Shown here in pieces: positions 3,641 to 53,419 of a DNA stretch of 64,000 bases (positions are counted from its first letter, which is position 1; every line of letters begins with the position of its first letter). The stretch covers positions 3,368-67,367 of the IMG/VR virus record IMGVR_UViG_3300022594_000256. The stretch is one strand, 5' to 3'. Made by a program: the position numbers and the translations under genes. The notes beneath the pieces are model-generated. The model was not told the DNA's origin, ran no database searches, and was given only the letters and a program-made list of their open reading frames with translations. This DNA is from a virus. Taxonomy: Duplodnaviria > Heunggongvirae > Uroviricota > Caudoviricetes.

Positions 3641-14267
<10,627 letters not shown>

Positions 14268-30242: not shown

Positions 30243-30863
30243 TTATGGGCGTTTATCAATCACTTTATCAGCTAAACCGTAGGCTACAGCTTCTTCTGCG
30301 CTTAAGAATGTATCAAACTTCATGGTTTCAAACAATTCTTCGTACTTTTTACCCGCAGTATTATGCTTAACATACAGCTCAGTTAGACGCTTATTAATGC
30401 GAATTGACTCTTCAATGGCACGTTTTGCATCTTCAAACTCTAGTTCTTGTACGTGTACGCTACCGCTTGTACCACGTGTGCCAGAACTAACGCGGTGAAT
30501 CATTGTACGTGCCTCTGGCAATACGTAACGCTTACCGGGATGCCCTGCTTGTGCTAAGAACGAGCCCATTGAACATGCTTGACCTAGTACGTAAGTTGCT
30601 ACATCAGGCTTGATAAATTGCATGGTGTCGTAAATAGCCAAGCCCGCAGTAACAGAACCGCCAGGACTATTAATGAAAAAAGTAATGTCCTCATTGCCTT
30701 GGCTTTCTAAAAATAGTAGTTGAGCTACAATTACACTAGATGTATGCTCGTTAACATCTGAGTCAAGCATAACAATACGGTCTTTAAGTAAACGACTGTA
30801 AATGTCATATGCACGTTCTCCACGTGCTTCTGTTTCAATAACTGTAGGGATTAAACGTGTCAT
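30243..30863 (-). CDS. clpP: ClpP-family serine protease subunit
   Basis: INSPGGSVTAGLAIYDTM, active-site GQACSMGSFL, MIHRVSSG; track start is TTG at 30878; ATG at 30863 (MTRLIPTVIE) matches mature ClpP N-terminus. Confidence 0.85.
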   Translation of the reverse strand: MTRLIPTVIETEARGERAYDIYSRLLKDRIVMLDSDVNEHTSSVIVAQLLFLESQGNEDITFFINSPGGSVTAGLAIYDTMQFIKPDVATYVLGQACSMGSFLAQAGHPGKRYVLPEARTMIHRVSSGTRGTSGSVHVQELEFEDAKRAIEESIRINKRLTELYVKHNTAGKKYEELFETMKFDTFLSAEEAVAYGLADKVIDKRP

Positions 30864-31030
30864 TAGCGATGTTTCCAAAAATTAAAATTTAAATAAATGA
30901 GCCCTGCGTTAACAGTGGCCCAAAACCATTGTTCATGTATTATATTATCAAACGTAGCAAAACACAACCAGCCAATTACCCACCAAGTAATTTCTGTCTG
31001 ATTATTTCTATACCAATCTAAAAAATTCAT
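30863..31030 (-). CDS. small Trp-rich hydrophobic protein (55 aa, below ORF-track cutoff)
   Basis: MNFLDWYRNNQTEITWWVIGWLCFATFDNIIHEQWFWATVNAGLIYLNFNFWKHR; TAATG coupling at both ends. Confidence 0.3.
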   Translation of the reverse strand: MNFLDWYRNNQTEITWWVIGWLCFATFDNIIHEQWFWATVNAGLIYLNFNFWKHR

Positions 31031-31573: not shown

Positions 31574-32425
31574 TTACTTGCCCATGTTTAACATCATACC
31601 GTTGCTACCATTAAGAACAGTAGTTGGCAGTTTACCATCCCACTTCTCAATCCACTGTAGCTGTACGTAGTTTGCACCACCGTTGCTTTGAATAGCTTGT
31701 GCTTGGATACTAATAGCCTTAGCTTCACCTTCAGCTTGAGCAATGCGTGATTTAGCTTCAACTTCAATTCGACGCAAGTCTTGTTCAGCTTTGGCAGTTT
31801 GTTGCACAGAAATAACTTTCTGCTCAATAGCCTTCTGATAGTCTGCACTGAATCCAAAGTTAACCAAACTAATACCACTTACGTCAATATCAAACGGAGC
31901 AACCTTAGCTTTCAACATTTGTTGAATTTCGTCACTAACTTGCTGACGCTTAGTAATCAATTCTTCACTTGTGTAGTGAGCTGTAACCGATTTAAACGCT
32001 TCGTTAATAGCTGGTCCAAGAACCTTTTCATCTACGTTAAGTCCGAACTCTTTGTAGATCTGTGGAACCTTTGCAGCGTTCAAACGATACTGAACAACAA
32101 TATCTGTGTGAACTTGTTGCAGATCCTTAGTTGATGCATTAGCACCAGCCAGTTGATCCTTTTGCAGTCGTACATCAACATCTTTTACAGAGCTGATTGG
32201 ATTCACAAAATGAACACCTTCGGTTAGTGCATTTGGATTCACTTCACCTAACGTAACGATAACACCAGTATGGCCCGCACTAATAACAGTGAACGAACTA
32301 AACGTAATGCCACCTACTAGGATCAGCACACCTGCTAAAATACCTAGTGCTTTTTGGTCGAGCAATACAATAATTGCTCCTGCGGCAACAATTGCCAGTA
32401 ATACGAAAAATATGATTGAAAACAT
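31574..32425 (-). CDS. SPFH/band-7 (stomatin/prohibitin/HflKC-like) membrane protein
   Basis: 283 aa; N-terminal TM anchor then SPFH core and coiled-coil Ala/Glu/Gln-rich region (AKAEQDLRRIEVEAKSRIAQAEGEAKAISIQAQAIQ). Confidence 0.8.
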   Translation of the reverse strand: MFSIIFFVLLAIVAAGAIIVLLDQKALGILAGVLILVGGITFSSFTVISAGHTGVIVTLGEVNPNALTEGVHFVNPISSVKDVDVRLQKDQLAGANASTKDLQQVHTDIVVQYRLNAAKVPQIYKEFGLNVDEKVLGPAINEAFKSVTAHYTSEELITKRQQVSDEIQQMLKAKVAPFDIDVSGISLVNFGFSADYQKAIEQKVISVQQTAKAEQDLRRIEVEAKSRIAQAEGEAKAISIQAQAIQSNGGANYVQLQWIEKWDGKLPTTVLNGSNGMMLNMGK

Positions 32426-37824: not shown

Positions 37825-38133
37825 TTACTTCCAAAGTTTAAGTAGATTAACAAACTCGGGCCATTCGGTGTCTGGACGTGGGCACAATACAATGCCAACT
37901 TCTTGTCCGTTCATGCGGCTTTCAGTAACTAATTGAGTATCCTCTAACTCTTTAAGCATAGCAAACTCTGCAGGTGTTACTGCACAAGTAACTTTCTTAA
38001 AGCTCTTGTTCAGCCATGTTTTATAGTTGTCCTTATGCCCAAAACTAATATGACACATCAGTCCAGCGTGTGCGGCTGTGTTCATTGCCATGCCCACAGG
38101 CAAGTCGTCTTTAATACAGATATACATTTTCAT
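37825..38133 (-). CDS. hypothetical protein
   Basis: 102-aa ORF, ATG. Confidence 0.4.
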   Translation of the reverse strand: MKMYICIKDDLPVGMAMNTAAHAGLMCHISFGHKDNYKTWLNKSFKKVTCAVTPAEFAMLKELEDTQLVTESRMNGQEVGIVLCPRPDTEWPEFVNLLKLWK

Positions 38134-39010: not shown

Positions 39011-39682
39011 TTACACGAAAATGAAGTCAGTGTCAATCTTTTGTGTTCTTACGTAGACTTTTTTAATAATACTTCTAAGTATTGGGTCGTTAGCATCAAA
39101 ATGGCTAACATACGCATTTAAGTTTGGACTTACAAATCGCCCGTTAAGTTTAAATCGTGCAAGTGTACTAATTCGAGACATATATCGTAGTGCTCTAAAT
39201 TTACCCAATGCTCTACATAACTCAATAGCGATACTAAACGCATATGCATCGATTTCGTCTGGGTCAGTAAGATACAATTGATAATGGTAGTTGCCATTAT
39301 GACGAGGCCAATATGTTTTGTAATTTCTTCTTCTAGCTTGTCGTTGGTGCTTGTACTCGTGGACTACTGCATCAAATATTTCTTTTAACAAGTCTGAAAT
39401 TTGTTGCTTGTCCCAAACAACAGTTTTGTCAAAGTTATGAAACACAATAACTTCAATGCATACATCGCCTTCTGCATCATCTTCTGCATCGTAGTATGCG
39501 TTGACGTAAAATTCTTCAACACCTAGATACTTTTTTCTTGATGATCTAAATTTAATGTGTAGATTGTTATTGACAAACTCTCTTCTTATAGTTGTAAGTA
39601 ACTGTTGGAAACTGACGCCTTGTTTTGTTACATTGCGTATGCCATTGCAGATCAAGCAAACAGTTTCCAGTATCGAGTTCAT
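39011..39682 (-). CDS. HExxH-motif protein (paralogue of 29465..30184)
   Basis: VVHEYKHQRQARRRNYKTYWPRHNGNYHYQLYLTDPDEIDAYAFSIAIE. Confidence 0.5.
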   Translation of the reverse strand: MNSILETVCLICNGIRNVTKQGVSFQQLLTTIRREFVNNNLHIKFRSSRKKYLGVEEFYVNAYYDAEDDAEGDVCIEVIVFHNFDKTVVWDKQQISDLLKEIFDAVVHEYKHQRQARRRNYKTYWPRHNGNYHYQLYLTDPDEIDAYAFSIAIELCRALGKFRALRYMSRISTLARFKLNGRFVSPNLNAYVSHFDANDPILRSIIKKVYVRTQKIDTDFIFV

Positions 39683-39897
39683 AATCTATAAGATATTCTT
39701 CCCTTGGTCAGATCATACGGGCTGACTTCGATCTTAACAGAGTCTCCAAGAATAATTCTAATCTTGTGCTGTTTCAATCTCCCGCCTAAGTAGCATAGAA
39801 TAGGGTTAGAGGCTTGCTCTATTTTCACTCTAAACATGTTACCTGGTAATACTTCTTCTACTGTGCCTGTTAGTTCTAAAATATCGTCTTTAGCCAT
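39679..39897 (-). CDS. infA: translation initiation factor IF-1
   Basis: 72 aa; MAKDDILELTGTVEEVLPGNMFRVKIEQ...KIRIILGDSVKIEVSPYDLTKGRISYRL aligns along full length with bacterial IF-1 (S1-like OB fold). Confidence 0.85.
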   Translation of the reverse strand: MAKDDILELTGTVEEVLPGNMFRVKIEQASNPILCYLGGRLKQHKIRIILGDSVKIEVSPYDLTKGRISYRL

Positions 39898-40072
39898 TTT
39901 TCTTTGATAAAGTTATCTTTCCTTCTTCCGCGTTAATTACAATTGTGTCGCCTTCTACCCAGCCTAGTTGTTCACAAATTTCTGGAGGTATTTTCATCAT
40001 ACAATTATCCGGATCTCCCGGGATGTCTTCGAAAATTTCTTCGTAGTTATATATCATACTATATTTATGGTC

Positions 40073-40474
40073 CTATTCCTCGTCATCCCACGGAACAGGC
40101 ATCCATCCTAGGTCATTCAAGTCCTGTGCAATTTCTTCTGATACTACACCTTCTGATTGGAATCCGGTACGTTCAAAATAGTCGTCGTCATCTGTATTAT
40201 TCGGATCAAGACTTAGTCCGCCACGCATACCTGAACAGTAGTAATCCATGTAGTCTTCACCCTTACCGCGAAGCTCTGCTACAATACCGCCAGCACCACG
40301 CCAGCTGGCTGACCAGTAGCGTTCACTAAGAACGGGCCACATCTCACGCTTACACCATCGCATGTTACACCAAGCTGCATACAAGTTTTGAGCATATCGC
40401 CTATCCTCAGCTTGTATTTTAGCCATGATCCACGAGCAGTCTCGGATCTCTTCTTGTAAGTCGTATTCTTTCAT
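40073..40474 (-). CDS. hypothetical acidic protein
   Basis: 133-aa ORF. Confidence 0.45.
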   Translation of the reverse strand: MKEYDLQEEIRDCSWIMAKIQAEDRRYAQNLYAAWCNMRWCKREMWPVLSERYWSASWRGAGGIVAELRGKGEDYMDYYCSGMRGGLSLDPNNTDDDDYFERTGFQSEGVVSEEIAQDLNDLGWMPVPWDDEE

Positions 40475-40791
40475 TAGTGGAACGATCCTTGCAGGCAGTG
40501 TAGAGTTTCATGCCCTAACATTTCTTTAGTAAACTTCTTAGGAAGGATAATAGTACATTGCTTACCCACCCAGAATGTACATGCGTCAACACCGTAGCCA
40601 AAACCGCCCATACCTCGGGCTTTGCTTTCTTTTTGGCAAGTAGCATTAACATTGTCAACATTACGGATGTCAATGTTTAGATGGTCTGACATGTTATCTT
40701 TAGAACTATACATAGCCTTAGGATCTTGCCAATCAGGTTTGGCAAAAACACTAGTAGCTACTATCAACAACATAAAAGCAATCTTTTTCAT
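40474..40791 (-). CDS. secreted small protein with HExxH
   Basis: signal peptide MKKIAFMLLIVATSVFA; C-terminal GHETLHCLQGSFH. Confidence 0.45.
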   Translation of the reverse strand: MKKIAFMLLIVATSVFAKPDWQDPKAMYSSKDNMSDHLNIDIRNVDNVNATCQKESKARGMGGFGYGVDACTFWVGKQCTIILPKKFTKEMLGHETLHCLQGSFH

Positions 40792-40813
40792 ACTATCCTC
40801 TGTGTAGTTAAAA

Positions 40814-40924
40814 TGGTGTAGACGGTAGGATTCGAACCTACAGAGTCGCTCTAAGAGCTAGACCCGGACCCTCCGTTCGCCGAAGCTACTAGGAGGAGGT
40901 TTACCAAGTTACACTCACGTCTAC
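40814..40924 (-). tRNA. atypical tRNA-like gene (107 nt + encoded ACCA)
   Basis: Minus-strand RNA GTAGACG TG AGTGTAACTTGGTAAACCTCCTCCTAGTAGCTTCGGCGAACGGAGGGTCCGGGTCTAGCTCTTAGAGCGACTCT GTAGG TTCGAAT CCTAC CGTCTAC ACCA: perfect 7-bp acceptor stem, canonical T-arm (T-loop TTCGAAT), discriminator A + CCA; body about 30 nt too long for a canonical cloverleaf; anticodon not assignable by eye. Confidence 0.5.
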
Positions 40925-40938
40925 GTCAGTATTATAAT
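40909..40938 (+). promoter_or_regulatory. sigma70-like promoter for rightward radical-SAM operon
   Basis: -35 TTACAC (40909-40914), 18-bp spacer, -10 TATAAT (40933-40938), about 20 nt upstream of first start. Confidence 0.4.
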
Positions 40939-40958
40939 CTCACTTGTAAATAGTGTCA

Positions 40959-41918
40959 ATGACATTCTCACAAATACCCCTTCAAGACATTGTTGCTTTT
41001 GGACAACAGACTATGTTGGATCGCCCATTATTTAACATAAGTTGGATTTTGGGCAGATTTTGTAACTATAAATGTAGCTATTGCTGGCCCTACGCTAGAA
41101 CCGATGTGCCCGATTACCAAAGTTTAGAACTGTATAAACGTACAGTAGATGAAATTAAACGACAAGCAAGAGCAAACGGATTTACACAATTCCATTGGAG
41201 TTTTAGCGGTGGCGAACCAACTGCATACAAATATTTACTTGATTTAATTAAACACCTAGACGAAACGGAAAGTAGCTACCAAAGCATACATATGACTACT
41301 AATTTAAGCCCTGGTTCAAAATGGTGGGGTAATTGGTGTCGTAACACTGAGCTGTTACAGCGTAAAAGTATTACGGCTAGCTTTCATGAAGAGTTTGCCA
41401 AAGAACAAGAGTTTGGTGATAAGTGTTTACAGCTAATGTACGAGCTGGTTCATGTAACAGTTAATCAAGTTATGGTTCCGGAAAGGTTCTACGAAACTTT
41501 AGATCGTTGTGAACGTCTACGTGCTAGAGGAATTAACGTAACACTCAAACCGCAAAGCAATGACACTGCTACTGCTATTGTAGATGGCTATACATCTGAT
41601 ATGATTAATATCATGCAAAATGATTTTGAACAACAAGAAGGTTTTCAAATTCGATTAACAGACGGTGAAAAAGATTATTACATAGACCAAGCAGAAAGAT
41701 TCAATGCATTAGGCTTTAATAAATTTACCAATTGGAATTGTAATGCAGGATATCAAAGTGTTATAATAAGAGGTAATGAAGTCAAACGAGCATATAGCTG
41801 TCGTGATGTTCCGTTAGGTACTTTAGATAGTTTTGAACTATTTAAACAACCACAGAAATGTACTACACCTACGTGTGTAAGCTCAGCCGATAGCAAAATA
41901 CCAAAATGTATAAATTAG
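40959..41918 (+). CDS. radical SAM protein (family C: CNYxCxYC)
   Basis: Track start is GTG 40953; ATG 40959; Cx3Cx2C = CNYKCSYCWPY. Confidence 0.7.
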   Translation: MTFSQIPLQDIVAFGQQTMLDRPLFNISWILGRFCNYKCSYCWPYARTDVPDYQSLELYKRTVDEIKRQARANGFTQFHWSFSGGEPTAYKYLLDLIKHLDETESSYQSIHMTTNLSPGSKWWGNWCRNTELLQRKSITASFHEEFAKEQEFGDKCLQLMYELVHVTVNQVMVPERFYETLDRCERLRARGINVTLKPQSNDTATAIVDGYTSDMINIMQNDFEQQEGFQIRLTDGEKDYYIDQAERFNALGFNKFTNWNCNAGYQSVIIRGNEVKRAYSCRDVPLGTLDSFELFKQPQKCTTPTCVSSADSKIPKCIN

Positions 41919-42928
41919 AAGATATAAGAGACATTCACTTAGAAGTTACAACAAAATGCCAGGCAAGGTGTCCTATGTGCCCTCGCAGAATAAACGGCGG
42001 TGTCTTAAATCCTCTAATGACATTGACTGAGATAGACTTAGAAACTTTTAAACAATGGTTTAGTGTAGACTTTATTCAGCAGTTAGACAGTTTGTTTATG
42101 TGTGGTAATTTAGGAGATCCTATTATTGCACAAGACTGTCTTCCAATACTCGAATATTTAAAGTTGTCAAACCCGAAAATACGATTGTCAATGCACACAA
42201 ATGGCAGTGCAAGGAACTCCAACTTTTGGAAAAAACTAGCAGAACTAAATGTTAGGGTAGTGTTTGGTATCGACGGTACGGAAAAGACACATAGTCTTTA
42301 TCGCATCAATACAGATTATAACCAAATTTTAAATAACGCTAAGACTTTTATTGATGCTGGTGGGTACGCCGAATGGCACATGTTAGTGTTTGAGCATAAT
42401 CAACATGAAACAGAACTTTGTCAGCATACTGCTAATCAAATGGGTTTTAAAAACTTTCAAATAAAACACACTACAAGATTTACAGATACTAGTTTTCCTG
42501 TCCTTGATGATAGTGGAAAGACATTGTATCAACTATACCCAAGTGACAGAACAAAAGAACAGTTGCCAACCATATTAAAATATTCTAGAGATTTGCCTTC
42601 ATCGTTTGTAGTTGAGCAGGTTGGAAAATGTACAATTAATTGCAAGGCTGTTAAATGGAAGCAAATTTATGTTGCTGCTACGGGAAATGTAGGTCCTTGT
42701 TGTTGGATGGACTTTAAAGAAAAATTACACAAACAAAACACACGTATTGACTACATGGATAAGATAGGATTGTTTCCTAATTTACAAGAACATACTCTAG
42801 CAGAAATTTTTAATTCTGGATACTTTGATAAGATATCTAGTACATGGGATTCTGAGCCAGTATTTGAATGTGCTAAACAATGCGGTAATTTTGATAAGTC
42901 TGGGGTTCAATTTGAAAATAGATCTTGA
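41906..42928 (+). CDS. radical SAM protein (family B: CQARCPMCP) with C-terminal Cys-rich (SPASM/twitch-like) region
   Basis: LEVTTKCQARCPMCPRRINGG; C-terminal CTINCKAV...GPCCW...CAKQCGNFD. Confidence 0.7.
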   Translation: MYKLEDIRDIHLEVTTKCQARCPMCPRRINGGVLNPLMTLTEIDLETFKQWFSVDFIQQLDSLFMCGNLGDPIIAQDCLPILEYLKLSNPKIRLSMHTNGSARNSNFWKKLAELNVRVVFGIDGTEKTHSLYRINTDYNQILNNAKTFIDAGGYAEWHMLVFEHNQHETELCQHTANQMGFKNFQIKHTTRFTDTSFPVLDDSGKTLYQLYPSDRTKEQLPTILKYSRDLPSSFVVEQVGKCTINCKAVKWKQIYVAATGNVGPCCWMDFKEKLHKQNTRIDYMDKIGLFPNLQEHTLAEIFNSGYFDKISSTWDSEPVFECAKQCGNFDKSGVQFENRS

Positions 42929-42944
42929 ACACCTTCATTACTGG

Positions 42945-43502
42945 ATGCAAGCTATCCGCCAAAGTAATGATCCTATGCGCACTATGGATGCCTTTTGGAG
43001 TGGACAACTTAAAAGCAAAGAGTGGTTGATTACTAATCTTCGCAAGAATGTTGACAAAGTTGTTAGTGTAGATATACACGGTGGGTGGGTAGGAGTACTT
43101 GCCAGTATGCTGTTTCAAAGTGATATTATATGCACAACAATAAGAAGCATTGACATCGACCCTAGTTGTGAACCTATTGCTAACATGATGAACAAGGGCG
43201 AAGAGATGGTTGGCAAGTTTCGTGCAGTAACAGCGGACATGTGTACAATACGTAGCGACGCTGATGTAATTATTAACACAAGTTGCGAACATATAACACA
43301 AGACCAATTTGATTTATGGAAGTCAGGCATGCCGCATAATTCGTTACTTGTATTGCAAAGTAACAATTATATTATAGATGAGCATATTCGTCCTGCAAAA
43401 AGTTTAGAACATTTTAAAGAACAGTGTGGAATTAATGTATTGTGGGCAGGAGAATTAGAATTGCCCTTGTACACACGTTACATGATTATAGGAAAGCAGT
43501 AA
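42945..43502 (+). CDS. hypothetical protein, possible class I SAM-dependent methyltransferase
   Basis: VVSVDIHGGWVGVLASMLF resembles motif I (V.D.G.G.G); start moved to ATG 42945 to remove 104-nt overlap. Confidence 0.35.
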   Translation: MQAIRQSNDPMRTMDAFWSGQLKSKEWLITNLRKNVDKVVSVDIHGGWVGVLASMLFQSDIICTTIRSIDIDPSCEPIANMMNKGEEMVGKFRAVTADMCTIRSDADVIINTSCEHITQDQFDLWKSGMPHNSLLVLQSNNYIIDEHIRPAKSLEHFKEQCGINVLWAGELELPLYTRYMIIGKQ

Positions 43503-44920
43503 TGGATAAGGTATTTTGGTTACAACCAGAAAACACTCAATTAGGTGATTGGCAAAAACAAATAACCGAAGTATCTGGAAGCCCTAGCTTTTGTGTCCTT
43601 CCATGGATACACTTAGCAACACGCCCTAACGGCGACATGCGTATTTGTTGCGTAGCCAATGCTAGTGGTGCAGAGTCTGGCGATTATTCTGTAGGACTTG
43701 TTAAAAAGGAAGACGGAACTCCTGCTAACTTTGGAAGAGATTTACCAACAGAAGCATTTAACAATGACTATATGAAGTCAGTAAGAAAAACAATGTTAGC
43801 AGGTGAAGTTCCTGCTAGCTGTCTTAAATGCTACGAGGAAGAACAACGAGGCATCAGCAGTAAACGTATTTGGGAAACTGGTACTTGGTACTTACATGAA
43901 CAATTGGACATTAAAGAACTAATTGCTGAAACACAGGAAGACGGAACAGTCCCTCATAAACTTCAATATTTAGATTTACGTCTAGGCAACACTTGTAACC
44001 TAAAGTGCATTATGTGTAGTCCGCACGACAGTAGCATGTGGACAACTGAATACAAAAAAGTATATCCGATATTTCAAAGCCCATTGATTAAAAGCCAAAT
44101 GGGCTGGGATGAAAGTTTACACGATAACCGCTGGCACGAGAATCCTAAATTCTGGGAAGAGATATTTGATCAGATTCCTAACATTAAACAATTGTACTTT
44201 GCCGGTGGCGAACCTTTACTAATTAAAGAGCATAGGATTTTATTAGAAGAAATTATCAAGCGTGGGTACGCAGATAAGATTAGTTTGCGTTATAACACTA
44301 ACGGTATACTAGTGTCAGATGAAATTATTGACGTTTGGAAAAAATTTAAAAAAGTTAAAGTTGGTGTTAGTTTAGACGGCATTGGCCCACGTGGAGAATA
44401 TATACGTTATCCGTTAGATTGGAAAACTGTAGAAGCTAATTTAATTAAGTTAGACAATGCTCCTAACAACATACAAACAAACATTGCTATGGCAGTACAA
44501 ATTTTAAATATCAAGCACGTTCCAGATTTTATCAAATGGAAAGTGGGCATGAATTTTAAAAAAATTAATTTTGATAAAAATGCAGCTGGGCACACAATGG
44601 GCGGTGGACTAGTTGGTGTACACTTGTTATGGATTCCAACTTGGCTAAGTTTACGTGTTCTTCCTAAAGAAGACAAAGAAGAAGTGCGTAAAATGTTTGC
44701 GGAACTACAAGAATGGCTGTGGAAACATTATACACAGGATAAAGAGTTTTGGGAAATTAACCCGTATGGGTGGAAACGTTGGGAAGGCATACTAGATTGG
44801 ATGGATGCCGAAGACGATACTCGCTTGCTTACAGACTTCCGCGAATACATTAGTAAAATGGATAACCAACGTAAAACAAATTTTAAAATTACATTTCCTG
44901 AGATTGCACATTTACTATGA
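43502..44920 (+). CDS. radical SAM protein with N-terminal Cys-rich extension (family A)
   Basis: FCVLPWIHLATRPNGDMRICC...CLKCY then CNLKCIMC; start set to ATG 43502 (TAATG coupling). Confidence 0.7.
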   Translation: MDKVFWLQPENTQLGDWQKQITEVSGSPSFCVLPWIHLATRPNGDMRICCVANASGAESGDYSVGLVKKEDGTPANFGRDLPTEAFNNDYMKSVRKTMLAGEVPASCLKCYEEEQRGISSKRIWETGTWYLHEQLDIKELIAETQEDGTVPHKLQYLDLRLGNTCNLKCIMCSPHDSSMWTTEYKKVYPIFQSPLIKSQMGWDESLHDNRWHENPKFWEEIFDQIPNIKQLYFAGGEPLLIKEHRILLEEIIKRGYADKISLRYNTNGILVSDEIIDVWKKFKKVKVGVSLDGIGPRGEYIRYPLDWKTVEANLIKLDNAPNNIQTNIAMAVQILNIKHVPDFIKWKVGMNFKKINFDKNAAGHTMGGGLVGVHLLWIPTWLSLRVLPKEDKEEVRKMFAELQEWLWKHYTQDKEFWEINPYGWKRWEGILDWMDAEDDTRLLTDFREYISKMDNQRKTNFKITFPEIAHLL

Positions 44921-45954
44921 AACCTATAAAGATTGTATCAACTCAACAGGCAAATATCTTAGAAATAAGATGGCATCCTAATAATGTTTGTAACTATTCA
45001 TGTGAATACTGCTGGCCCGGAAGTCACGACGGCGATTACCCGTCTCCAAAAAATTTAGATCTTATAATTAAAAATTTTAATCACATGGCAGAGCATTATA
45101 AGACTCAGTTAGGTAAAACTAAAATACATCTTAAGATGGGTGGCGGTGAACCTACATTGTGGAAAGACTTAGCAAAGTTCATACGAGAAGTAAAAAAGAA
45201 TAATGACATATATTTTACAATTATTAGTAACGGTAGTAGAACACTGCGTTGGTGGAAAGAAAATGGTGACTTAATAGATAACGCACATCTGTCTTTTCAT
45301 ATTGCACAAGCAGATGCTGATCATATGATTGCTGTTGCTGACACTCTGTTTGAGTTTAATAAAAAGGTAACTGTTAAAGTACTTATGGACCGCAAGCATT
45401 GGCAGGAAGGCTTAGACGTTATTGAGTACATGAAAAAGAATAGTAAGCATAAATGGTTTATTATGACCAGCGAGGTAATTGAGCCTGAGACTCTTAAAAT
45501 AGCAGGTATAAGGGTTGTAAGCAATACTGACATTCAATTAACCCCTGCCCAAAAAGGCTTCCTAAAAAATCCACTAAAAAGAATACCTAGTTTATTATGG
45601 TTTTGGAAAAATATAAAATTAGTATTTGAAGGGCAGATTAGACTGTTCGAAAGTGTTATGTATTTTGACAACAATAAAAAACAAAAAGCAAAGACTAACA
45701 CCTACATTAACAATGGGTGGACTAGCTTTCAAGGTTGGAGTTGTGATATTGGCTTAGAAAATGTTTACATTGATTGGGCAGGATCTATTCAAGGATCATG
45801 CGGGCAAACACTTTACGGGTTAGATCATAATTTTAATATCCTGGATGAGGATTTTGTAGAAAAATTTAATCCAGAATTGAAGCCATCAATTTGTGCTATT
45901 AGAAACTGTTTCTGTGTTCCAGAAACTCATGTCTCAAAGTTTAACCTTAGTTAA
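44917..45954 (+). CDS. radical SAM protein (family C)
   Basis: LEIRWHPNNVCNYSCEYCWPG; ATGA coupling. Confidence 0.7.
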   Translation: MKPIKIVSTQQANILEIRWHPNNVCNYSCEYCWPGSHDGDYPSPKNLDLIIKNFNHMAEHYKTQLGKTKIHLKMGGGEPTLWKDLAKFIREVKKNNDIYFTIISNGSRTLRWWKENGDLIDNAHLSFHIAQADADHMIAVADTLFEFNKKVTVKVLMDRKHWQEGLDVIEYMKKNSKHKWFIMTSEVIEPETLKIAGIRVVSNTDIQLTPAQKGFLKNPLKRIPSLLWFWKNIKLVFEGQIRLFESVMYFDNNKKQKAKTNTYINNGWTSFQGWSCDIGLENVYIDWAGSIQGSCGQTLYGLDHNFNILDEDFVEKFNPELKPSICAIRNCFCVPETHVSKFNLS

Positions 45955-46833
45955 GGGAATGTCAGCAGCACAAGTACAGAAGTTCCTATCACAAATGATC
46001 GGAGCATCGGGGACATTAAAAGTTCCTGCGTAAATATTTCCTAAACTGCCGCCCACACGACAAGTAGCGCGGTGAACTTCTCCGTCCCAGTTAATCATTA
46101 GACTTTCTAAGCCTGCATTACAGCTCCATCCTTTCCATTGATTTAAATGTAGTTTAATAATGTCATTAGCATGATACAGCATCTCTTGACCATTGTCATC
46201 TGTTAATACAGTATTTGCTTTTACAGTAGCACTATGTTCTTTAATCCAAATTAAATCATCAGGGTGATAACGCATATCGTCAAACAAGTCATGGTCGCCT
46301 TCGGTCCAACGTATGCGCCTAACAGTTGTAGAAATCCCATCTGCATATAATGTATGGTACGATGCTTTAACAAATGCCATATGATCATGATGTGCCATTA
46401 GCTGTGCAATAACTGGCGTAAGAGTTTGTGCTGCTACAGTTCGTAACGTGTTGCATATACGCATCCAATCATATTCAAAATGTACACTGAATACATATTG
46501 ATCAACTGGTAAGGATTGATAAAACTCTGCAGGTAGTGTGCCGTTAGTTGTTACACTAATCCAACTAATGCCAACATGCTTACAGTATTTTACTAGTTCT
46601 TGAAATTTAGGATGTACTGTAGGTTCGCCGCCAGTAAAGCTAAGACGTATAGGCTTGCCTAGAGTCATTAGTTTGTCTACAGTTGCTTTAAGGGTTTCTA
46701 TGTCGGTGTGTGGACTTGAATTGTCGTGTATGCTACTAGGGCAGTAGCTACAATCGTAGTTACAACGCTTGCCAAGATTCCACTCAATTTTAATCGAATC
46801 TTGATGCGGCCAACGACTAGTTACTTTAGACAA
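45934..46833 (-). CDS. radical SAM protein (family C)
   Basis: IKIEWNLGKRCNYDCSYCPSS; TTG start with GGAG SD, overlaps upstream gene by 8 nt; convergent with 44917..45954 (21-nt 3' overlap). Confidence 0.65.
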   Translation of the reverse strand: MSKVTSRWPHQDSIKIEWNLGKRCNYDCSYCPSSIHDNSSPHTDIETLKATVDKLMTLGKPIRLSFTGGEPTVHPKFQELVKYCKHVGISWISVTTNGTLPAEFYQSLPVDQYVFSVHFEYDWMRICNTLRTVAAQTLTPVIAQLMAHHDHMAFVKASYHTLYADGISTTVRRIRWTEGDHDLFDDMRYHPDDLIWIKEHSATVKANTVLTDDNGQEMLYHANDIIKLHLNQWKGWSCNAGLESLMINWDGEVHRATCRVGGSLGNIYAGTFNVPDAPIICDRNFCTCAADIPLTKVKL

Positions 46834-48079
46834 TGGACTTAAACTCCGGAGTTACATCTGTAAAACTTTGATTTCGAGTTACATCTAATCTACGATTAAA
46901 TTCTACACAGTCTTGCCATTTCTCGGATTGATCTCGAGCATTAAGATAGTTAATGTTATCTTGTATTTGACCCAACGTATATGCTAACAGTTGCGGATGC
47001 TGCTTAACAAGTTTAAAGTCCTTAATACGATAGCTAACTTCTTGTAGGCGTTGTATTGCTAATGCTCGCAACTTAGGAGGTAGTACTTGTGCCGATAGTA
47101 ACTTGGGATATTCTACTCTGTGTGTATGGAACACAATACCTAACTCATCTAAGAAATACTCAATCATTTTATCTAAGATAAGCACGTTACTTACTTGAAC
47201 AGTTACTGCCCCGACGATTCTACTAATGTTTGAGATTTTTTGGATCTCTTGTATGTTCTGTACAAGAATGTTCCAGTCGCTGTTACCGCGAACGTACTCG
47301 TAAACAGAACCAATGCCGTCAATAGAGACGTTAACGGCAACACTTCTAAACTTAGGCCAATATTCGTGAACACTTCGTCCTCCTTTAATTCCTAATGTAC
47401 TTAGGTTTGTAGCATACTTAATTTCTATTTGATGCCCGTATGGAGAAAGCATGTCTAAAATTTTATAATGCTGTGGATCCATTAATGGCTCTCCGCCTGC
47501 AAATTCTACACGTCGAAAATAGGGCAATAGTTTTTCTAAACTTGCCCACCACTTTGGATCATCTTGGAATTTATCAAGAAACGGTTTGCGTTCTAAATTA
47601 TGTTCTTCTACAATGGCATACATAATGTTGCCTTCTGCTTTGTAAAAGTCTTTAACTTCGCTCCAATCATTCCAACTAGTACTATCCATCGGATGACACA
47701 TGCGACACTTAAGATTACACAAGTTGTTTAACTTTAATTCCATTGTAGGAATTTCAAATGGCATTACTTCTTGTAACGGAGTGTTCGGATAAAGGTTAAT
47801 ACGTGCTTCTGGAATTTTACCTGATATATGTCGAACACGTAAACTTTCAACACCTTGGTCCTCTAAACTGAAACAGGGCTCACACTCGGGTGGGCGTTCG
47901 TTGTTAAGTACTTGCCTACGAATACGCTGCATTGTTTTGTTGTTCCAGATTTCTTCTAACGACTCTTTGTCTATAAAGCCAACAGGGTGGCTACGACAAC
48001 AAGCACATATAGCACCGTCTTCCCTAGTGGCTAACCCTGTAAACGGGTGCATACAAAATGTTTTACTGTTCTGCGACAT
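46826..48079 (-). CDS. radical SAM protein with N-terminal Cys-rich extension (family A)
   Basis: FCMHPFTGLATREDGAICACC...CEPCF then CNLKCRMC. Confidence 0.7.
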   Translation of the reverse strand: MSQNSKTFCMHPFTGLATREDGAICACCRSHPVGFIDKESLEEIWNNKTMQRIRRQVLNNERPPECEPCFSLEDQGVESLRVRHISGKIPEARINLYPNTPLQEVMPFEIPTMELKLNNLCNLKCRMCHPMDSTSWNDWSEVKDFYKAEGNIMYAIVEEHNLERKPFLDKFQDDPKWWASLEKLLPYFRRVEFAGGEPLMDPQHYKILDMLSPYGHQIEIKYATNLSTLGIKGGRSVHEYWPKFRSVAVNVSIDGIGSVYEYVRGNSDWNILVQNIQEIQKISNISRIVGAVTVQVSNVLILDKMIEYFLDELGIVFHTHRVEYPKLLSAQVLPPKLRALAIQRLQEVSYRIKDFKLVKQHPQLLAYTLGQIQDNINYLNARDQSEKWQDCVEFNRRLDVTRNQSFTDVTPEFKSIV

Positions 48080-48914
48080 ATCTAATTAATGGACTAACGC
48101 CAACTGGACTACCTTCTTTCAACGCAAGATAAATTGATTGGGTAGGAGTTAAGTTGAAATCTTTACACACCTTATAATAAATGTCTCCATATGTATTCCA
48201 CAAGTAGTCAGGAGGAAGTGTTCGAACAAAGTGCAAACCGATCATTGCTAGTGCTCGATTATTCATACGGAAATCATTCATTATTGTAACACTATCTGGT
48301 TTAGATTGTCTAGTCCAACGTAAGCCAATTCTATTCCAACCTAAGCCTAGTCCTTTACTCAAACTAATACCTACAGACTTGATTGCGCTATGAGATACAT
48401 CAAAGTTAATTCCGCGGCAGCAAGTAAGCCAAGCGCCATCCACATGTACACTAATACCCTTGTCTCTCGCTTCATTTAGCAATTCCTCCATTTGGTGATG
48501 TGTGGCACCTGTGCTAGGAAATGGCATCGCTATAATCAATGGAATGCCTGGAACTAGCGAGCCCACATCCTTAACATACGCTAACCCTAATCGTTGGTGA
48601 TATCTATAATCATTATTAAGAACTTGTACTGGACCCTGCATGTATAAGTTGTCAATAAATTGGGTACACCCGTTTATAATGTCTACACGCTCAAAACTAT
48701 CAAACCCTGTTACTGTGTTTAACTTAGAATTAAAAATCCAATTTGTAGTTTCTTTTTTAAAGTTAGTGTAAACACTATCAGTAATATCCTTATCTAGACC
48801 GCCAAAGAGGACATCCTGTATTGTCTGTTCAATTTTTAAATCTGACAATGGACTGGGTCTTTCTACTTCTAAGTAGTCAGCTGAGTATGCTGGTGCAGTT
48901 CGTAAACGGTTCAT
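48063..48914 (-). CDS. hypothetical protein (start ambiguous: 48914 or 48956)
   Basis: 297-aa track ORF; internal ATG 48914 preferred because it leaves a divergent spacer. Confidence 0.45.
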   Translation of the reverse strand: MNRLRTAPAYSADYLEVERPSPLSDLKIEQTIQDVLFGGLDKDITDSVYTNFKKETTNWIFNSKLNTVTGFDSFERVDIINGCTQFIDNLYMQGPVQVLNNDYRYHQRLGLAYVKDVGSLVPGIPLIIAMPFPSTGATHHQMEELLNEARDKGISVHVDGAWLTCCRGINFDVSHSAIKSVGISLSKGLGLGWNRIGLRWTRQSKPDSVTIMNDFRMNNRALAMIGLHFVRTLPPDYLWNTYGDIYYKVCKDFNLTPTQSIYLALKEGSPVGVSPLIRYVAEQ

Positions 48915-48954
48915 GAAATATTTAACCTCATTAAGTGCGCATATAAATATTTTC
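48915..48954. promoter_or_regulatory. divergent intergenic spacer with 9-bp inverted repeat AAATATTTA(N19)TAAATATTT
   Basis: sequence aaatatttaacctcattaagtgcgcatataaatattt between the leftward and rightward operons. Confidence 0.3.
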
Positions 48955-49620
48955 ATGCTAACGCCAACTAACTATAAAATAGATCCAACGCTCTTTCAAG
49001 AAGCATTACAGCAGCTTCCCGAGGCTGGTATGAAAACAACCATTAATCAACCCAATGGTGATTTCTTCTACGATCCGTGGATTTTAAAAGAAGAGTACAA
49101 AGGTACTGTTTGGGAAACTTTATATAACAGTTTGCCTGTATTGAAGGGCGAAGCAAGAATTATAATTTTGGAACCTGGGCAATGTTACCAATGCCATGCT
49201 GATATAGATGATAGATATCATTTAACCATATTAGGTGAGAAGTCTTATTTGATAGATTTAGAAACTAACCAAATGCATTTTTTAAATCAAAATGGAATTT
49301 GGTATAACATGGATGCTGGTCAATTACATACAGCGGCTAACTTTGGCAAAGTTGCTAGAGTACAATTAGTAGTTAGGCAATTGCTTAAAAAAAATAATAT
49401 TGAAAATCCAATAAAGGTTACAGTGAAACCTGTATCAAAAGATTTATATCATGCTAGATATTTGTTTGACTATCACATTAGTCCTTGGCTTAATGCAGCA
49501 AATAAAAACGGATACATAAATGATTTTAAGCATGTAAACGGATCAGCAATATTTGAGATAGCGCAGGATAAACTAGACACTCTTAAATTTTTCCTGCCAG
49601 AGGGTTTTGTTGTAGAATGA
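48955..49620 (+). CDS. AspH-like cupin Fe(II)/2OG hydroxylase (paralogue family: 52927, 54498, 61257)
   Basis: CHADIDDRYH (HxD) ... QLHTAANFG (distal His, xNxG). Confidence 0.45.
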   Translation: MLTPTNYKIDPTLFQEALQQLPEAGMKTTINQPNGDFFYDPWILKEEYKGTVWETLYNSLPVLKGEARIIILEPGQCYQCHADIDDRYHLTILGEKSYLIDLETNQMHFLNQNGIWYNMDAGQLHTAANFGKVARVQLVVRQLLKKNNIENPIKVTVKPVSKDLYHARYLFDYHISPWLNAANKNGYINDFKHVNGSAIFEIAQDKLDTLKFFLPEGFVVE

Positions 49621-51164
49621 ACCACGCACTATTTTTTAGCCTAACAGGCAAACGATGGGAACGCATCTTATGGGTACACCGTGTTGCTACATTCCTACGA
49701 ATGAATGAGTGGGACGCAGAGGTTGTAGACTTTACAGCATTTTGGCAACTAGAAGAATTGCAAGAACTAGTGCGTAGCAGAACAACAGACAAGACTGTTA
49801 TGTTTTGTTTTGGCACGGCATTTTTGAATCCATGGAGTCCATACTTAAATGAATTTATTGATTGGCTAAAACAAGAGTATCCAACTATTCCTATTGTAGT
49901 TGGTGGCAACAACGCACTAACAACTCCGGCCAACAGTGTAGACTATTGGGTAGATAGTTACGGGGAAAATGCTGTGCTAGCATTGTGCCAACACCTTATC
50001 GGAACACTAGGCGCACCATTAATGACTGACTCTGCATTCTTTGGCAGCAAGAAGGTTATACGTGGACTACACCATTATCCTTCAGCGCCACTAGACAGCT
50101 ACCTAGTTGATTACGAAACACGTGACTTTATGATGCCATGGGAATGCCCGCAAATTGAAACCGCACGTGGTTGCATGTTTAGCTGTAGTTATTGTAACTT
50201 TCCTATCATTGGGCAAGCTAAAGACGTTAGTGTAAGCAAAGAACAATTCAAACTTCAAATGCAAACAGGCTACGAAAAGTGGGGGATTAAGAATTGGCGT
50301 GTTATGGACGAAACATTTAACGATCGTCCTGAAAAACTGCAAAAGTATGCAGACGCTGTTGATGAGCTAGGATACAATCCTTGGATATGTGGATTTGCTC
50401 GTGGTGACTTGGTTGTTAAACATAAGGAACATTGGGACACTTATATCAGATTAGGCTTCCTTGGACATAGCATGGGTATTGAAACATTTAATCATGCTGC
50501 TGGTAAACTTGTACGCAAGGGTATGGATCCTGACAAACTACAACAAGGGTTATTAGAGTTTCAGGAATATACTGACATACATGCTCCTAAGCGATATAGA
50601 GCAAACATTCAAATGATTTGCGGCATTCCGGGCGAAACTAAAGAATCGTGGCATCAATCATTAGACTGGCTCAATACAAAGTGGACTAGACAAAGCGCCA
50701 GCGCACACATATTAGAAGTACCGGACTACGACGAAACACTTACAAATCAAAGTCGTTTTACTAAGGAACTAGTAAACAACGGACTAATTAAATTAGAAGC
50801 TAGACAAAATCCAGGGTATAATGTAACTAAAGATAGCAGAGGAAATGTTATTTTTAAATCTACTACTCCGCGAGGAGGTGGCGTCGGTAGCACGAGAAAT
50901 GATATTGTTATTTGGCAACACAACACAATGGATTGGTATCAAGCAGAATCTCTAGTACAAGAATTTTACTCACCTAACGGGTTTACTGGACTACGGGGGT
51001 GTAACCCATTCTTATCTGATAGAGTATTTGCTTATTATGAAACAAATTCATATGAAGATATCTATGATTGTAGACTAACAGATATAGATACGTCTGATCA
51101 AAAGTTTAAAGAACAAGTACAAGCGTATATTAATAAAAAATTAAATTGGAATAGCAATGTTTAA
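49617..51164 (+). CDS. B12-binding radical SAM protein
   Basis: N-terminal cobalamin-binding-like region (PIVVGGNNALTTPANSVDYWVDSYGENAVLALCQHL) then CMFSCSYC. Confidence 0.7.
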   Translation: MNHALFFSLTGKRWERILWVHRVATFLRMNEWDAEVVDFTAFWQLEELQELVRSRTTDKTVMFCFGTAFLNPWSPYLNEFIDWLKQEYPTIPIVVGGNNALTTPANSVDYWVDSYGENAVLALCQHLIGTLGAPLMTDSAFFGSKKVIRGLHHYPSAPLDSYLVDYETRDFMMPWECPQIETARGCMFSCSYCNFPIIGQAKDVSVSKEQFKLQMQTGYEKWGIKNWRVMDETFNDRPEKLQKYADAVDELGYNPWICGFARGDLVVKHKEHWDTYIRLGFLGHSMGIETFNHAAGKLVRKGMDPDKLQQGLLEFQEYTDIHAPKRYRANIQMICGIPGETKESWHQSLDWLNTKWTRQSASAHILEVPDYDETLTNQSRFTKELVNNGLIKLEARQNPGYNVTKDSRGNVIFKSTTPRGGGVGSTRNDIVIWQHNTMDWYQAESLVQEFYSPNGFTGLRGCNPFLSDRVFAYYETNSYEDIYDCRLTDIDTSDQKFKEQVQAYINKKLNWNSNV

Positions 51165-52245
51165 ATTCAGCGACCTTAAAGAACTACAGTTAGAAATAAC
51201 TAACAACTGTCAGGCTCGTTGCCCAATGTGCCCAAGAAACATTAACGGTGGATTGGAAAATCCTCTTATTAAAACTACAGAGTGGACACTTGAAGATTTT
51301 AAAATTATAATGAATCCTAAGGTACTGAACCAAATTGAATGTTTTCACTTGTGTGGAAACTTTGGTGATCCTATGATGAATGACGATGTCATTGATATGT
51401 GTCAGTACACTACAGATACAAATCCTAATGTATGTTTACAATTTCATACAAACGGTGGAGCAAGAAAACCAGAGTGGTGGGAAAGATTAGCAAGAGCATT
51501 ACCAAAAAATCATAGAGTTATTTTTGCTATTGACGGATTAGAAGACACTCTTAGTTTATATCGAATAGATACAAAATATGAAACAGTTATAAAAAATGCA
51601 CAAGCGTTTATTAACGCCGGCGGAATAGCTGAGTGGGCTTTTATTAAATTTAAGCATAATGAACATCAAATAGAAGAAGTAAGACAGAGAGCAAAAAATT
51701 TAGGGTTTGCACACGTATCAATTAAAAATAGTTTTAGGTTTTTAACAGACACAAAATTTCCTGTCTTAAAGAAAAATGGATCTCTTGATTATTATTTAGA
51801 AACACCTTCTCAAACAACAATTAAATTAATTGATAAAGAAACAATTAAGAATTGGGATAACACTATGAAGTCTGCAGAAATAGAATGCAGAGCACAAAGT
51901 AGCAGCGCAATTTATATAGATGCTTACAAAGATTTTTATGCTTGCTGTTATTTGGGTACAGTTCCGTTTATGTTTGTTTCCGATGATATAACAAAAGGTA
52001 TACGAGGGAAAATGGTTGAACAGCATCATACCATGGTATCTAAGTTAGGTGAAATTAATACTCTTAAAAGATCAATTGAAGACATTTTAAATTCTAATGA
52101 ATATCAAGAAGTATGGAAAGACATGTGGCATGATAATAAATCTCATATGTGCGTCACCATTTGTGGTAAACATAAGAATTTAGAACAGACTCAATTTTGG
52201 GATCAATGGGAAGAATATACCGAGTTAGACAAGGATAAACAATGA
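51157..52245 (+). CDS. radical SAM protein (family B)
   Basis: LEITNNCQARCPMCPRNINGG; C-terminal Cys pairs. Confidence 0.7.
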   Translation: MFKFSDLKELQLEITNNCQARCPMCPRNINGGLENPLIKTTEWTLEDFKIIMNPKVLNQIECFHLCGNFGDPMMNDDVIDMCQYTTDTNPNVCLQFHTNGGARKPEWWERLARALPKNHRVIFAIDGLEDTLSLYRIDTKYETVIKNAQAFINAGGIAEWAFIKFKHNEHQIEEVRQRAKNLGFAHVSIKNSFRFLTDTKFPVLKKNGSLDYYLETPSQTTIKLIDKETIKNWDNTMKSAEIECRAQSSSAIYIDAYKDFYACCYLGTVPFMFVSDDITKGIRGKMVEQHHTMVSKLGEINTLKRSIEDILNSNEYQEVWKDMWHDNKSHMCVTICGKHKNLEQTQFWDQWEEYTELDKDKQ

Positions 52246-52934: not shown

Positions 52935-53418
52935 TTGGAATACAGTAATTGATAACTTAACTGACGGTAAGGTTGTTACTGTTGATCCAGCACGTTGGAA
53001 TATGAATAATCCAGAATATGCAGCAATGCTAAACTTATGGAAGCGTAGCAACTTTAATACAGACAGTGTTAAGTGGACAAACTATTATAACACTAAAGAT
53101 ATCGAAACTGAAGTAGCTAAGGAAGTAAGTATTACACCATTGCGTAGTTGGATTAGTTGTGTCGAACCTGGATACATGACTGGATATCATTACGATATTG
53201 ACGACAACGAAAAAGAATATCTTAAATATGGATTATTAAAAAGATATTCGGTGTTTATTAGCGAGCCCAGTGTTGGGCACTTGTTTATTTTAGGTAAAGA
53301 ATACTTTTACAACAGTCCTCAAGGAACAATAGTTAAATGGGGCAATTACAGAGATTGGCATAACGGCATTAATGGCGGACTTGCAAACAAATACATGTTT
53401 CACATAATAGGATATTAA
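52927..53418 (+). CDS. AspH-like cupin hydroxylase paralogue
   Basis: GYHYDIDDNEKEY ... DWHNGINGG; start set to ATG 52927. Confidence 0.4.
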   Translation: MINWNTVIDNLTDGKVVTVDPARWNMNNPEYAAMLNLWKRSNFNTDSVKWTNYYNTKDIETEVAKEVSITPLRSWISCVEPGYMTGYHYDIDDNEKEYLKYGLLKRYSVFISEPSVGHLFILGKEYFYNSPQGTIVKWGNYRDWHNGINGGLANKYMFHIIGY

Positions 53419-53419
53419 A

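Follow-up and report, generated by a model that had tools for sequence, protein, structure and literature searches.

What remains for a tRNA to do once its anticodon is gone? The question is raised by a small gene in a 64,000-nt stretch of the uncultured phage record IMGVR_UViG_3300022594_000256 (positions 3,368 to 67,367 of that record). This whole stretch is referred to below as the window, and all coordinates are window coordinates unless another sequence is named. The gene is located on the minus strand at 40814..40924 and specifies a 111-nt RNA that resembles tRNA-Leu and has no anticodon loop. The covariance model of its family (R1) matches the gene at 122.4 bits and matches nothing else in the window, indicating one copy per window. 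We have very little doubt that the RNA is a real, conserved, non-decoding derivative of tRNA-Leu. No paper describing this RNA family was found in a literature search. Fremin et al. 2023 (PMC10690425) report 8,495 structured RNAs predicted in IMG/VR, tRNA-like ones included, and the family may be among their unnamed candidates.

A class-II cloverleaf without an anticodon loop

At least 121 phage contigs in IMG/VR carry a full-length orthologue of the RNA. These reduce to 87 distinct sequences, over which conservation is counted unless another number is given. Contigs with the RNA include IMGVR_UViG_3300027708_000012 and 3300023174_000036. A search for the exact 25-nt 3' half yielded 100 IMG/VR stretches, and each of them (100/100) contains a full-length homologue, amounting to 66 distinct sequences of 95-119 nt. 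As an independent sample, 79 loci were fetched via a neighbouring protein and then searched with model R1. The RNA was present in 39 of these 79 loci with scores of 85-122 bits, 350-500 nt upstream of that protein, which itself is found on at least 576 IMG/VR viral contigs. Neither the D-region signature nor the 3' half was found when 185,579 bacterial and archaeal genomes were scanned, and among 50,697 cultured-phage records BLASTN detected nothing that matches the region. Judged by these searches, the family appears to be phage-specific and to belong to a large group of uncultured freshwater phages.

Read from 5' to 3', the RNA is GUAGACG-UGA-GUGUAACUUGGUAAAC-C-UCCUCC-UAGUAGCUUCGGCGAAC-GGAGGG-UCC-GGGUC-UA-GCUC-UUA-GAGC-GACUC-U-GUAGG-UUCGAAU-CCUAC-CGUCUAC-A-CCA. 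Its two ends are those of a canonical tRNA, with a 7-bp acceptor stem, a 5-bp T stem carrying a 7-nt T loop (U54 U55 C56 ... A58), and a discriminator base followed by CCA. The 5' strand of the acceptor stem, GUAGACG (RNA 1-7; 40918..40924), pairs with CGUCUAC (40818..40824). Compensatory changes occur at 5/7 of these pairs and 99.8% of the alignment cells are paired. The 3' segment (RNA 101-111; 40814..40824) continues from this strand into A73 (40817) and an encoded CCA (40816..40814), and A73-CCA is present in 87/87 sequences. In the T arm, GUAGG-UUCGAAU-CCUAC (RNA 84-100; 40825..40841), 3/5 pairs covary and 100% of cells are paired. U54, U55, C56 and A58 are invariant, also in the 21 sequences that were picked without the 3' half, in which the T loop differs at positions 57, 59 and 60 alone and A73-CCA is constant.

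The original prediction, made from the window sequence, had recognized the acceptor stem, the T arm, the discriminator A, the CCA and two small hairpins, all of which are present on the minus strand. It had also concluded that the 76-nt body could not be folded. This conclusion does not hold, as the body folds, with the backing of covariation, into a D region, an anticodon-like stem and a variable arm. A UGA linker, the D region GUGUAACUUGGUAAAC and C27 make up RNA 8-27 (40898..40917). The D loop is of the tRNA-Leu type, with U8, A14, A15, G18G19, U20 and A20a invariant (87/87). The linker has 3 nt (UGA) instead of the canonical 2 nt, and the D stem is reduced to 2-3 possible pairs (G-C, U-A) in what would be a shifted register; the D region is invariant and thus offers no covariation. 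The anticodon-like arm (RNA 28-56; 40869..40897) starts with a 6-bp stem, UCCUCC/GGAGGG, in which 4/6 pairs covary. It continues through an AGUA/GAA internal loop (40890..40887 and 40878..40876) to a GC-UUCG-GC tip (40886..40879, with C(UUCG)G at 40885..40880). The long variable arm, GGGUC-UA-GCUC-UUA-GAGC-GACUC (RNA 60-82; 40843..40865), has 9 bp and a 2-nt bulge, and is flanked by UCC (40866..40868) and U48 (40842). Changes on both sides were found at 7/9 of its pairs, and two basal G.U pairs are conserved. The sequence GCUC-UUA-GAGC (40858..40848), described in the prediction as the second hairpin, does form, but is just the tip of this 9-bp arm. Two of the identities proposed there fit the structure: the RNA is a class-II derivative with an extended variable arm, in line with a type-II tRNA bearing an over-long arm, and it is a tRNA-derived non-coding RNA.

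Over the whole alignment, standard pairs occupy 99.3% of cells and double changes are seen at 19/29 pairs. None of 500 shuffles (0/500) reached this level, and sliding the pairing partners gave at most 5 such pairs. Thus, the acceptor stem, the T stem, the variable arm and the anticodon-like stem are four real helices, which make the RNA a cloverleaf of class II that lacks an anticodon loop. Note that the cloverleaf was not recovered by folding the single sequence. For the window sequence its energy is -33.7 kcal/mol, compared to a minimum free energy of -37.2 kcal/mol (a difference of 3.5), and the z-score of this sequence alone is an unremarkable -0.88. The support for the fold is comparative, not thermodynamic.

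At the junction, the hexamer ACCUCC (RNA 25-30; 40900-40895) is invariant, as is its partner GGG (RNA 54-56; 40871-40869). The hexamer resembles the anti-Shine-Dalgarno sequence of 16S rRNA (ACCUCCUUA). The basal pairs of the 6-bp stem (U.G, C-G, C-G) do not vary. At the base of the variable arm (40865-40863/40845-40843), two pairs are kept as G.U and not as G-C in 62/87 and 79/87 sequences. A junction frozen beyond what pairing needs suggests, from the alignment, a specific tertiary core or a contact with protein.

The distal part of the anticodon-like arm is the variable part of the RNA, with 43 distinct inserts of 2-25 nt. The arm is capped by CUUG, UUCG, UUUG or UUAG, by GNRA tetraloops (GCAA, GUAA), by the C-rich loop ACCCCCA or by UGUAACRAAC loops. 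The AGUA/GAA internal loop is found in 34/87 sequences, that of the window included. In 18/87 members the arm consists of the stem and a tetraloop cap and nothing more, and no loop motif is common to the family. A canonical 5-bp stem with a 7-nt loop, U33 and a conserved anticodon was not found, and no member keeps a 7-nt anticodon loop. With the loop, a leucine anticodon (NAG or YAA) is absent from the family alignment. ARAGORN, proposed in the original prediction as a check for a normal cloverleaf, called no tRNA or tmRNA anywhere in the 64-kb window. On short orthologues its calls conflict (Pro, Ser, Gly, Gln, Arg, Leu, and 4-nt anticodons), and since the isotypes differ between orthologues there is no conserved anticodon. 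The idea that the body is an insertion or intron in a tRNA likewise fails, the insert often being a mere tetraloop.

Assignment to the known RNA classes was tested with Rfam, also named in the prediction as a check. Rfam 15 gave no match in the window at gathering scores, although the family's own covariance model matches strongly. In E-value mode, the best match was tRNA-Sec (RF01852) at 19 bits, compared to a gathering score of 47. The Rfam tRNA model (RF00005) scored one short member at 28.4 bits, with a gathering score of 29, and marked the anticodon arm as unpaired. A tRNA-Sec was rejected on this score, on the acceptor/T lengths of 7/5 instead of the bacterial 8/5, and on the lack of a UCA loop. 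A tmRNA was rejected because conserved G3.U70, a tag open reading frame (ORF) and pseudoknots are all missing and the ARAGORN tmRNA search and Rfam were negative. Positions 3-70 form A-U in 74 sequences, G-C in 6 and G.U in 6. Alanine identity via G3.U70 was accordingly dismissed, the G.U pair occurring in just 6/86 sequences and interchanging with A-U and G-C. A mimic of initiator tRNA was considered on account of the neighbouring gene for initiation factor 1 (IF-1), and was rejected because pair 1-72 is G-C and the three consecutive G-C pairs that such a mimic requires are not present in the right orientation.

Ancestry and leucine identity

To place the RNA among tRNAs, model R1 was scored, with filters off, against all genuine tRNAs in related phage loci. 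The two tRNA-Leu genes reached 35.2 and 35.0 bits, followed by tRNA-Arg (25.3 bits), Pro (22.6 bits), Met (19.8 bits), Ala (19.1 bits) and Gln (17.1 bits). The class-II tRNA-Tyr of related phages scored 16.2 bits. Among the tRNAs of phage T4, Leu also ranked first (32.0 bits), ahead of Ser (29.7 bits) and Thr (25.7 bits), the margin between Leu and Ser being small. tRNA-Leu is the top match among true tRNAs in all three phage tRNA sets, and in the two sets from related phages all others remain at or below 25.3 bits.

The D arm of the tRNA-Leu in one related locus (L170), UG-GUG-GAAUGGUAUA-CAC, is nearly identical to the family sequence UGA-GUG-GAACUUGGUAUA-C. In this locus (2322-2573) and in a second one (L178; 2821-2977), the slot at the head of the operon, behind a strong promoter, is occupied by a genuine tRNA-Met and tRNA-Arg, and in L170 by the tRNA-Leu as well. 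Real tRNAs in this slot are plausible as the ancestral state, judging from the arrangement of these loci. In the simplest history, a tRNA-Leu gene heading an early operon would have lost its anticodon loop and then been kept for another purpose.

The positions that determine leucine identity are known. In E. coli they are A73, A15-U48, G18G19, A20a and the contacts G18:U55, G19:C56 and U54:A58 (PMC9976931, Giege and Eriani review), and in Aquifex U8:A14 matters too (PMC9976931). Leucyl-tRNA synthetase (LeuRS) recognises neither the anticodon nor the variable arm, and tRNA-Leu without both arms is still leucylated (PMC9976931). Larkin et al. 2002, as summarised in the same review (PMC9976931), obtained leucylation in vitro of a 'minimalist' tRNA-Leu without the anticodon arm. 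Every published LeuRS identity position is invariant in the family (87/87), and adjacent loop positions vary. The RNA thus keeps all that proteins reading tRNA-Leu 'from the top' would need, and has dropped what the ribosome and enzymes directed at the anticodon depend on.

Promoter and proposed function

The RNA is preceded by TTGACA-17-TATAAT (40959..40931, minus strand), a 12/12 match to the sigma-70 consensus. The -35 hexamer TTGACA (40954..40959) overlaps the start codon of a divergent radical-SAM ORF on the plus strand, and the -10 hexamer TATAAT (40931..40936) is followed by 6 nt (ACTGAC) and then by G1. All of the relatives with enough upstream sequence (86/86) have TTGACA or TTGACT, a 17-nt spacer and a -10 element that reads TATAAT or TATACT or is a close variant of these. 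A pyrimidine stands at -1 in 58/86, and the distance from the end of the -10 element to G1 is exactly 6 nt in 84/86. This fixed spacing points to a transcription start at G1, with no 5' leader. We propose that the host sigma-70 RNA polymerase starts at G1 from this near-consensus early promoter, producing a leaderless RNA with a 5'-triphosphate. With the start placed there by the spacing, no RNase P step would be needed.

At its 3' side, the RNA is joined to the first ORF of the operon (40474..40791, minus strand) by a U-rich trailer and a CA-rich leader with a Shine-Dalgarno sequence (UUUUAACUACACAGAGGAUAGU; 40792..40813, minus strand). The RNA fills the entire intergenic space between the divergent radical-SAM ORF and this first ORF, and no terminator was found between the RNA and the first ORF. 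The trailer in relatives is of the type UUUU(A)AACACACAG(A)GGC, the 4 nt past CCA being TTTT in 49/87. The same CA-rich leader stands behind another early promoter, at 34170, without the RNA. From its sequence, the region reads as if a gene of the tRNA type had been inserted between a promoter and an early leader of the ordinary kind. In the proposed mechanism, the RNA would be co-transcribed with the early operon and released by cleavage in the U-rich trailer, with trimming to the encoded CCA.

The radical-SAM ORF on the plus strand starts at 40953 (GTG) or 40959 (ATG), inside the -35 hexamer of the RNA promoter, and for 54/83 relatives the distance between G1 and the divergent start codon is 28-34 nt. 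The palindrome ATTATAAT (40931..40938), which contains the -10 hexamer, gives a perfect TATAAT on the plus strand too (40933..40938). A plus-strand -35 element matches at just 3-4/6 positions, and its location inside the RNA gene, as originally suggested, is geometrically plausible. Because the promoters and the start codon overlap, two transcription units share or compete for a 35-nt region. The gene had been placed at the boundary of a radical-SAM island. There is indeed a junction at this point, but it is a conserved divergent one, with the same radical-SAM gene upstream in 84/101 loci and the same operon downstream. Since relatives have retained the radical-SAM block beside the RNA, this block is not a recent island.

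What such an RNA could do follows from what it has kept. The RNA is proposed to fold into an L-shaped cloverleaf in which the acceptor end, the elbow formed by T loop and D loop, the junction and the base of the variable arm are frozen, with an arbitrary capped hairpin in place of the anticodon loop. Having no anticodon loop, it cannot read codons, and nucleases that attack anticodon loops have no target. Host LeuRS would recognise the RNA and probably leucylate it. One option is that the RNA serves as a decoy or sponge, capturing a host factor or defence effector with affinity for tRNA acceptor ends or for class-II tRNAs. The other is a leucyl carrier held out of translation.

Taken as a whole, our preferred reading is that the RNA is a non-decoding class-II mimic of tRNA-Leu that acts through its acceptor end and elbow and is probably leucylated; we put the chances of this combination at about even. 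That the RNA acts in trans through these two parts seems somewhat probable from their conservation. Leucylation taken by itself is a tentative assignment, more likely to fail than to hold. A bolder version would make the RNA the first natural viral 'top-half' tRNA, charged by LeuRS and made in bulk from the onset of infection, which feeds leucine to a non-ribosomal reaction or neutralises a host factor or immune effector. We consider this version doubtful.

Several observations weigh against the preferred reading. The 3'-half sample (66 of the 87 sequences) is biased by its own query, so that for the T loop and A73 the evidence of conservation comes from the other 21. U8, A14, G18G19 and the T loop belong to the universal tRNA core and are conserved for any function that requires the L shape, and A15-U48 and A20a could be a legacy of descent from tRNA-Leu. 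In addition, the remodelled D stem, with an extra A after G9 and 2-3 pairs, might impair recognition by LeuRS. The RNA is also dispensable in some lineages, as one locus (L120; 1936-1999) has a 64-nt remnant comprising the T arm, the 3' acceptor strand and CCA, fused to a -10-like TATAAT with the 5' two-thirds lost, and another (L173) has no RNA at all. No partner transferase or target defence system was identified, and the neighbouring genes point to no RNA partner. A peptidyl-tRNA hydrolase homologue of the PTH2 fold, considered as a dedicated partner, was rejected because its gene adjoins the operon in the window alone and not in relatives. Finally, the RNA is always located at the 5' end of the mRNA, which fits a role in cis too.

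Such a role in cis is the strongest alternative, though we consider it unlikely, with perhaps one chance in a few. The tRNA-like fold would protect or define the 5' end of the early mRNA, with a base-paired G1 that bears a 5'-triphosphate and is recessed beneath an ACCA overhang, or would serve as a signal for RNase P, Z or E, and the freed RNA would be a by-product. The RNA is always transcribed first, 20-30 nt ahead of the first start codon and with no terminator between, the spacing from promoter to G1 is fixed, the presence of the RNA correlates with this operon architecture, and t-elements (PMC1920247) provide a documented precedent. However, a simple hairpin would suffice to protect a 5' end, leaving the invariant A73-CCA, the elbow, A15/U48 and the covarying 9-bp variable arm unexplained. 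There is one RNA per window, followed by an ordinary CA-rich leader like that at 34170, and six loci have the RNA but not the first ORF. Moreover, six other near-consensus early promoters in the window lead straight into ORFs without such an RNA. In L173 (2790-2840), the same downstream operon follows a plain TTGACT-17-TATAAT promoter, with neither the RNA nor the first ORF. Since these promoters and the operon of L173 do without the RNA, action in trans is favoured over an obligatory role in cis.

We regard it as improbable that the tRNA body is a scaffold, present for stability and processing, with the anticodon-like arm as the active part, in the form of a small-RNA-like C-rich loop or of AGUA/GAA as a bulged-G motif that binds protein. 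The recurrence of the ACCCCCA and UGUAACRAAC loops and of AGUA/GAA would fit such a function, as would the likeness of the invariant ACCUCC to the anti-Shine-Dalgarno sequence. However, conservation is seen in the tRNA core and at the acceptor end and not in the hairpin, which in the 18 members with a bare tetraloop cap offers no such motif and has no loop sequence shared across the family.

It is very improbable that the RNA is a true decoding tRNA (a tRNA-Sec-like or suppressor tRNA included) whose intron or enlarged anticodon loop is removed or tolerated. The perfect acceptor stem, T arm and CCA, the weak tRNA-Sec match and the ARAGORN calls on some short orthologues would agree with it, but the isotype calls differ, the acceptor/T lengths are 7/5 and not 8/5, and in place of a conserved anticodon or 7-nt loop there is an insert of 2-25 nt, in many cases a UUCG, GNRA or CUUG tetraloop at the end of an unbroken helix. 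The gene could also be a tRNA pseudogene in decay or what is left of a tRNA-borne attachment site at the island boundary, the latter corresponding to the former integration target of the original prediction. This reading has hardly any chance of being correct despite the strand-switch junction beside the radical-SAM block and the truncated copy in L120, in view of the strong purifying selection and compensatory changes in four helices, the conserved consensus promoter aimed at G1, the retention of the junction and both flanks in relatives, the zero matches to the D-region signature and 3' half in bacterial and archaeal genomes, and the lack of an integrase among the proteins scanned around the RNA, a scan that did not cover every ORF of the window.

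Genomic setting and comparison with known systems

The source is a large uncultured phage; related contigs reach 345-364 kb, and a capsid-like protein is ~33% identical to those of PA5oct-type jumbo phages. The first ORF downstream of the RNA encodes 105 aa with a signal peptide and a C-terminal HETLHCLQGSFH (HExxHxxGxxH, a metzincin-type zinc-binding motif), and has no Pfam or PHROG match. It lies directly downstream in 87/101 loci anchored on the RNA and in 36/39 protein-anchored loci with the RNA, and is missing from six loci that have the RNA. Further along the minus strand, the operon encodes a MazE/AbrB-type antitoxin-like protein of 55 aa (39890-40057; PF04014, 25.1 bits), with no toxin gene beside it, and an IF-1 homologue of 72 aa (39679-39897; PF01176, 68.5 bits), which is found at this place in 80/101 loci. 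The MazE-like protein may be the phage's imitation of an antitoxin of the host. The operon also encodes a conserved protein of 133 aa whose fold is unknown. In the 39 loci of the protein-anchored sample that contain the RNA, the first ORF is present in 36, the divergent radical-SAM gene in 31, the MazE-like gene in 37 and the IF-1 gene in 36; loci without the RNA almost never have them.

The PTH2-fold protein (102 aa; 37825-38133, minus strand) was identified by profile matches to PDB entries 1rlk, 1rzw and 2zv3. Its AlphaFold2 model (predicted local distance difference test score, 86.7) gave Foldseek TM-scores of 0.75-0.82 against archaeal Pth2 and human Bit1, and hundreds of metagenomic relatives show 70-90% identity. 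The presence of PTH2 in jumbo phages was described earlier (PMC7824862). Together, the neighbouring genes are consistent with an early module that serves host takeover, translation and the countering of toxins.

At least 13 radical-SAM genes, an unusual density, are arranged on both strands of the window, at 20118-25538 and 40953-57900. They include two 'N-terminal twitch' enzymes (43442-44920, 407 bits; 46826-48079, 328 bits), several SPASM enzymes and two B12-binding enzymes (20118-22136 and 49617-51164). The window also contains a 3,432-aa ORF on the minus strand (3640-13938), a 2-oxoglutarate-Fe(II) oxygenase (26562-27137), and genes for a ClpP protease (30243-30878, 209 bits), an SPFH/Band-7 protein (31574-32425) and an ATP-dependent DNA ligase (28097-29419).

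The closest relative of the RNA among known molecules is bacterial and phage class-II tRNA-Leu. The two share the 7-bp acceptor stem, A73-CCA, a D loop of the form GGAAyUGGUAnAC (with A14, A15, G18G19 and A20a), U48, the T loop UUCGAAU and the long variable arm. Unlike tRNA-Leu, the RNA has no anticodon loop, an extra nucleotide after G9, a reduced D stem and a variable arm lengthened to 9 bp plus a bulge. It also differs in its frozen ACCUCC/GGG junction, in having its own predicted +1, and in falling below the thresholds of ARAGORN and Rfam. As a consequence, these programs miss the long forms of the family, and the short forms are assigned wrongly, to tRNA-Pro, Ser, Gly, Gln, Arg or Leu. 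Censuses of phage tRNAs in freshwater metagenomes are therefore slightly wrong, and would be corrected by a covariance model for the family; the lineage is large, judging by the number of contigs that carry the neighbouring protein.

The nearest phage precedents are rnaC and rnaD of T4 (species 1 and 2; L180, T4 70908-71171), and only generic tRNA-end features are common to them and the present RNA. They too are stable phage RNAs of ~120-140 nt, tRNA-linked and of unknown function. The 3' part of rnaC contains a module resembling a T arm and acceptor strand, CCGGG-UUCGAAU-CCCGG-CGUUUCG, which model R1 scores at 18.4 bits, and rnaD ends in CACCA (GGCGCACCA). In contrast to the RNA described here, both are located inside a tRNA cluster and not at an mRNA promoter, and they are not class-II cloverleaves; homology is limited to the generic T arm.

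The tRNA-like domain of tmRNA is likewise non-decoding and has an acceptor stem, a T arm and CCA. tmRNA is aminoacylated without an anticodon and needs G3.U70, pseudoknots, a tag ORF and SmpB, whereas this RNA has A-U, G-C or G.U at positions 3-70 and no tag ORF. A tRNA-like fold joined to an mRNA, where it could guide the formation of ends, is also found in the t-elements of plant mitochondria, in the mascRNA of MALAT1 and in mitochondrial tRNA punctuation. Such elements are usually degenerate mimics of the acceptor stem and T arm, with neither an encoded CCA nor an isotype-specific core, whereas the present RNA has the full tRNA-Leu core and begins at the predicted transcription start. YrlA, the bacterial Y RNA-like RNA, is a non-coding mimic of the T arm and D arm of tRNA. 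It is found in some phages, forms its Ro-binding stem from the 5' and 3' ends, and adjoins rsr. In the RNA studied here, the two ends pair into a true acceptor stem that carries CCA, and there is no Rfam match; no Ro/TROVE gene was found among the proteins scanned.

In one literature match, 'anticodon-less' referred to tRNA fragments generated by Schlafen-like nucleases. The usual explanations for tRNAs in phages are that they supply codons or help to evade anticodon nucleases. Neither explanation applies here, as decoding has been discarded and the amino-acid-accepting half of tRNA-Leu has been kept. If the RNA is a decoy, it would point to effectors in the host that recognise tRNAs from the side of the acceptor or of the variable arm. 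Charging, if it occurs, would make the RNA the natural counterpart of the minimalist tRNA-Leu and a new viral way to tap or jam the aminoacyl-tRNA system. Should the top-half-tRNA reading prove true, it would add a new layer to the control that phages exert over the tRNA machinery of their hosts.

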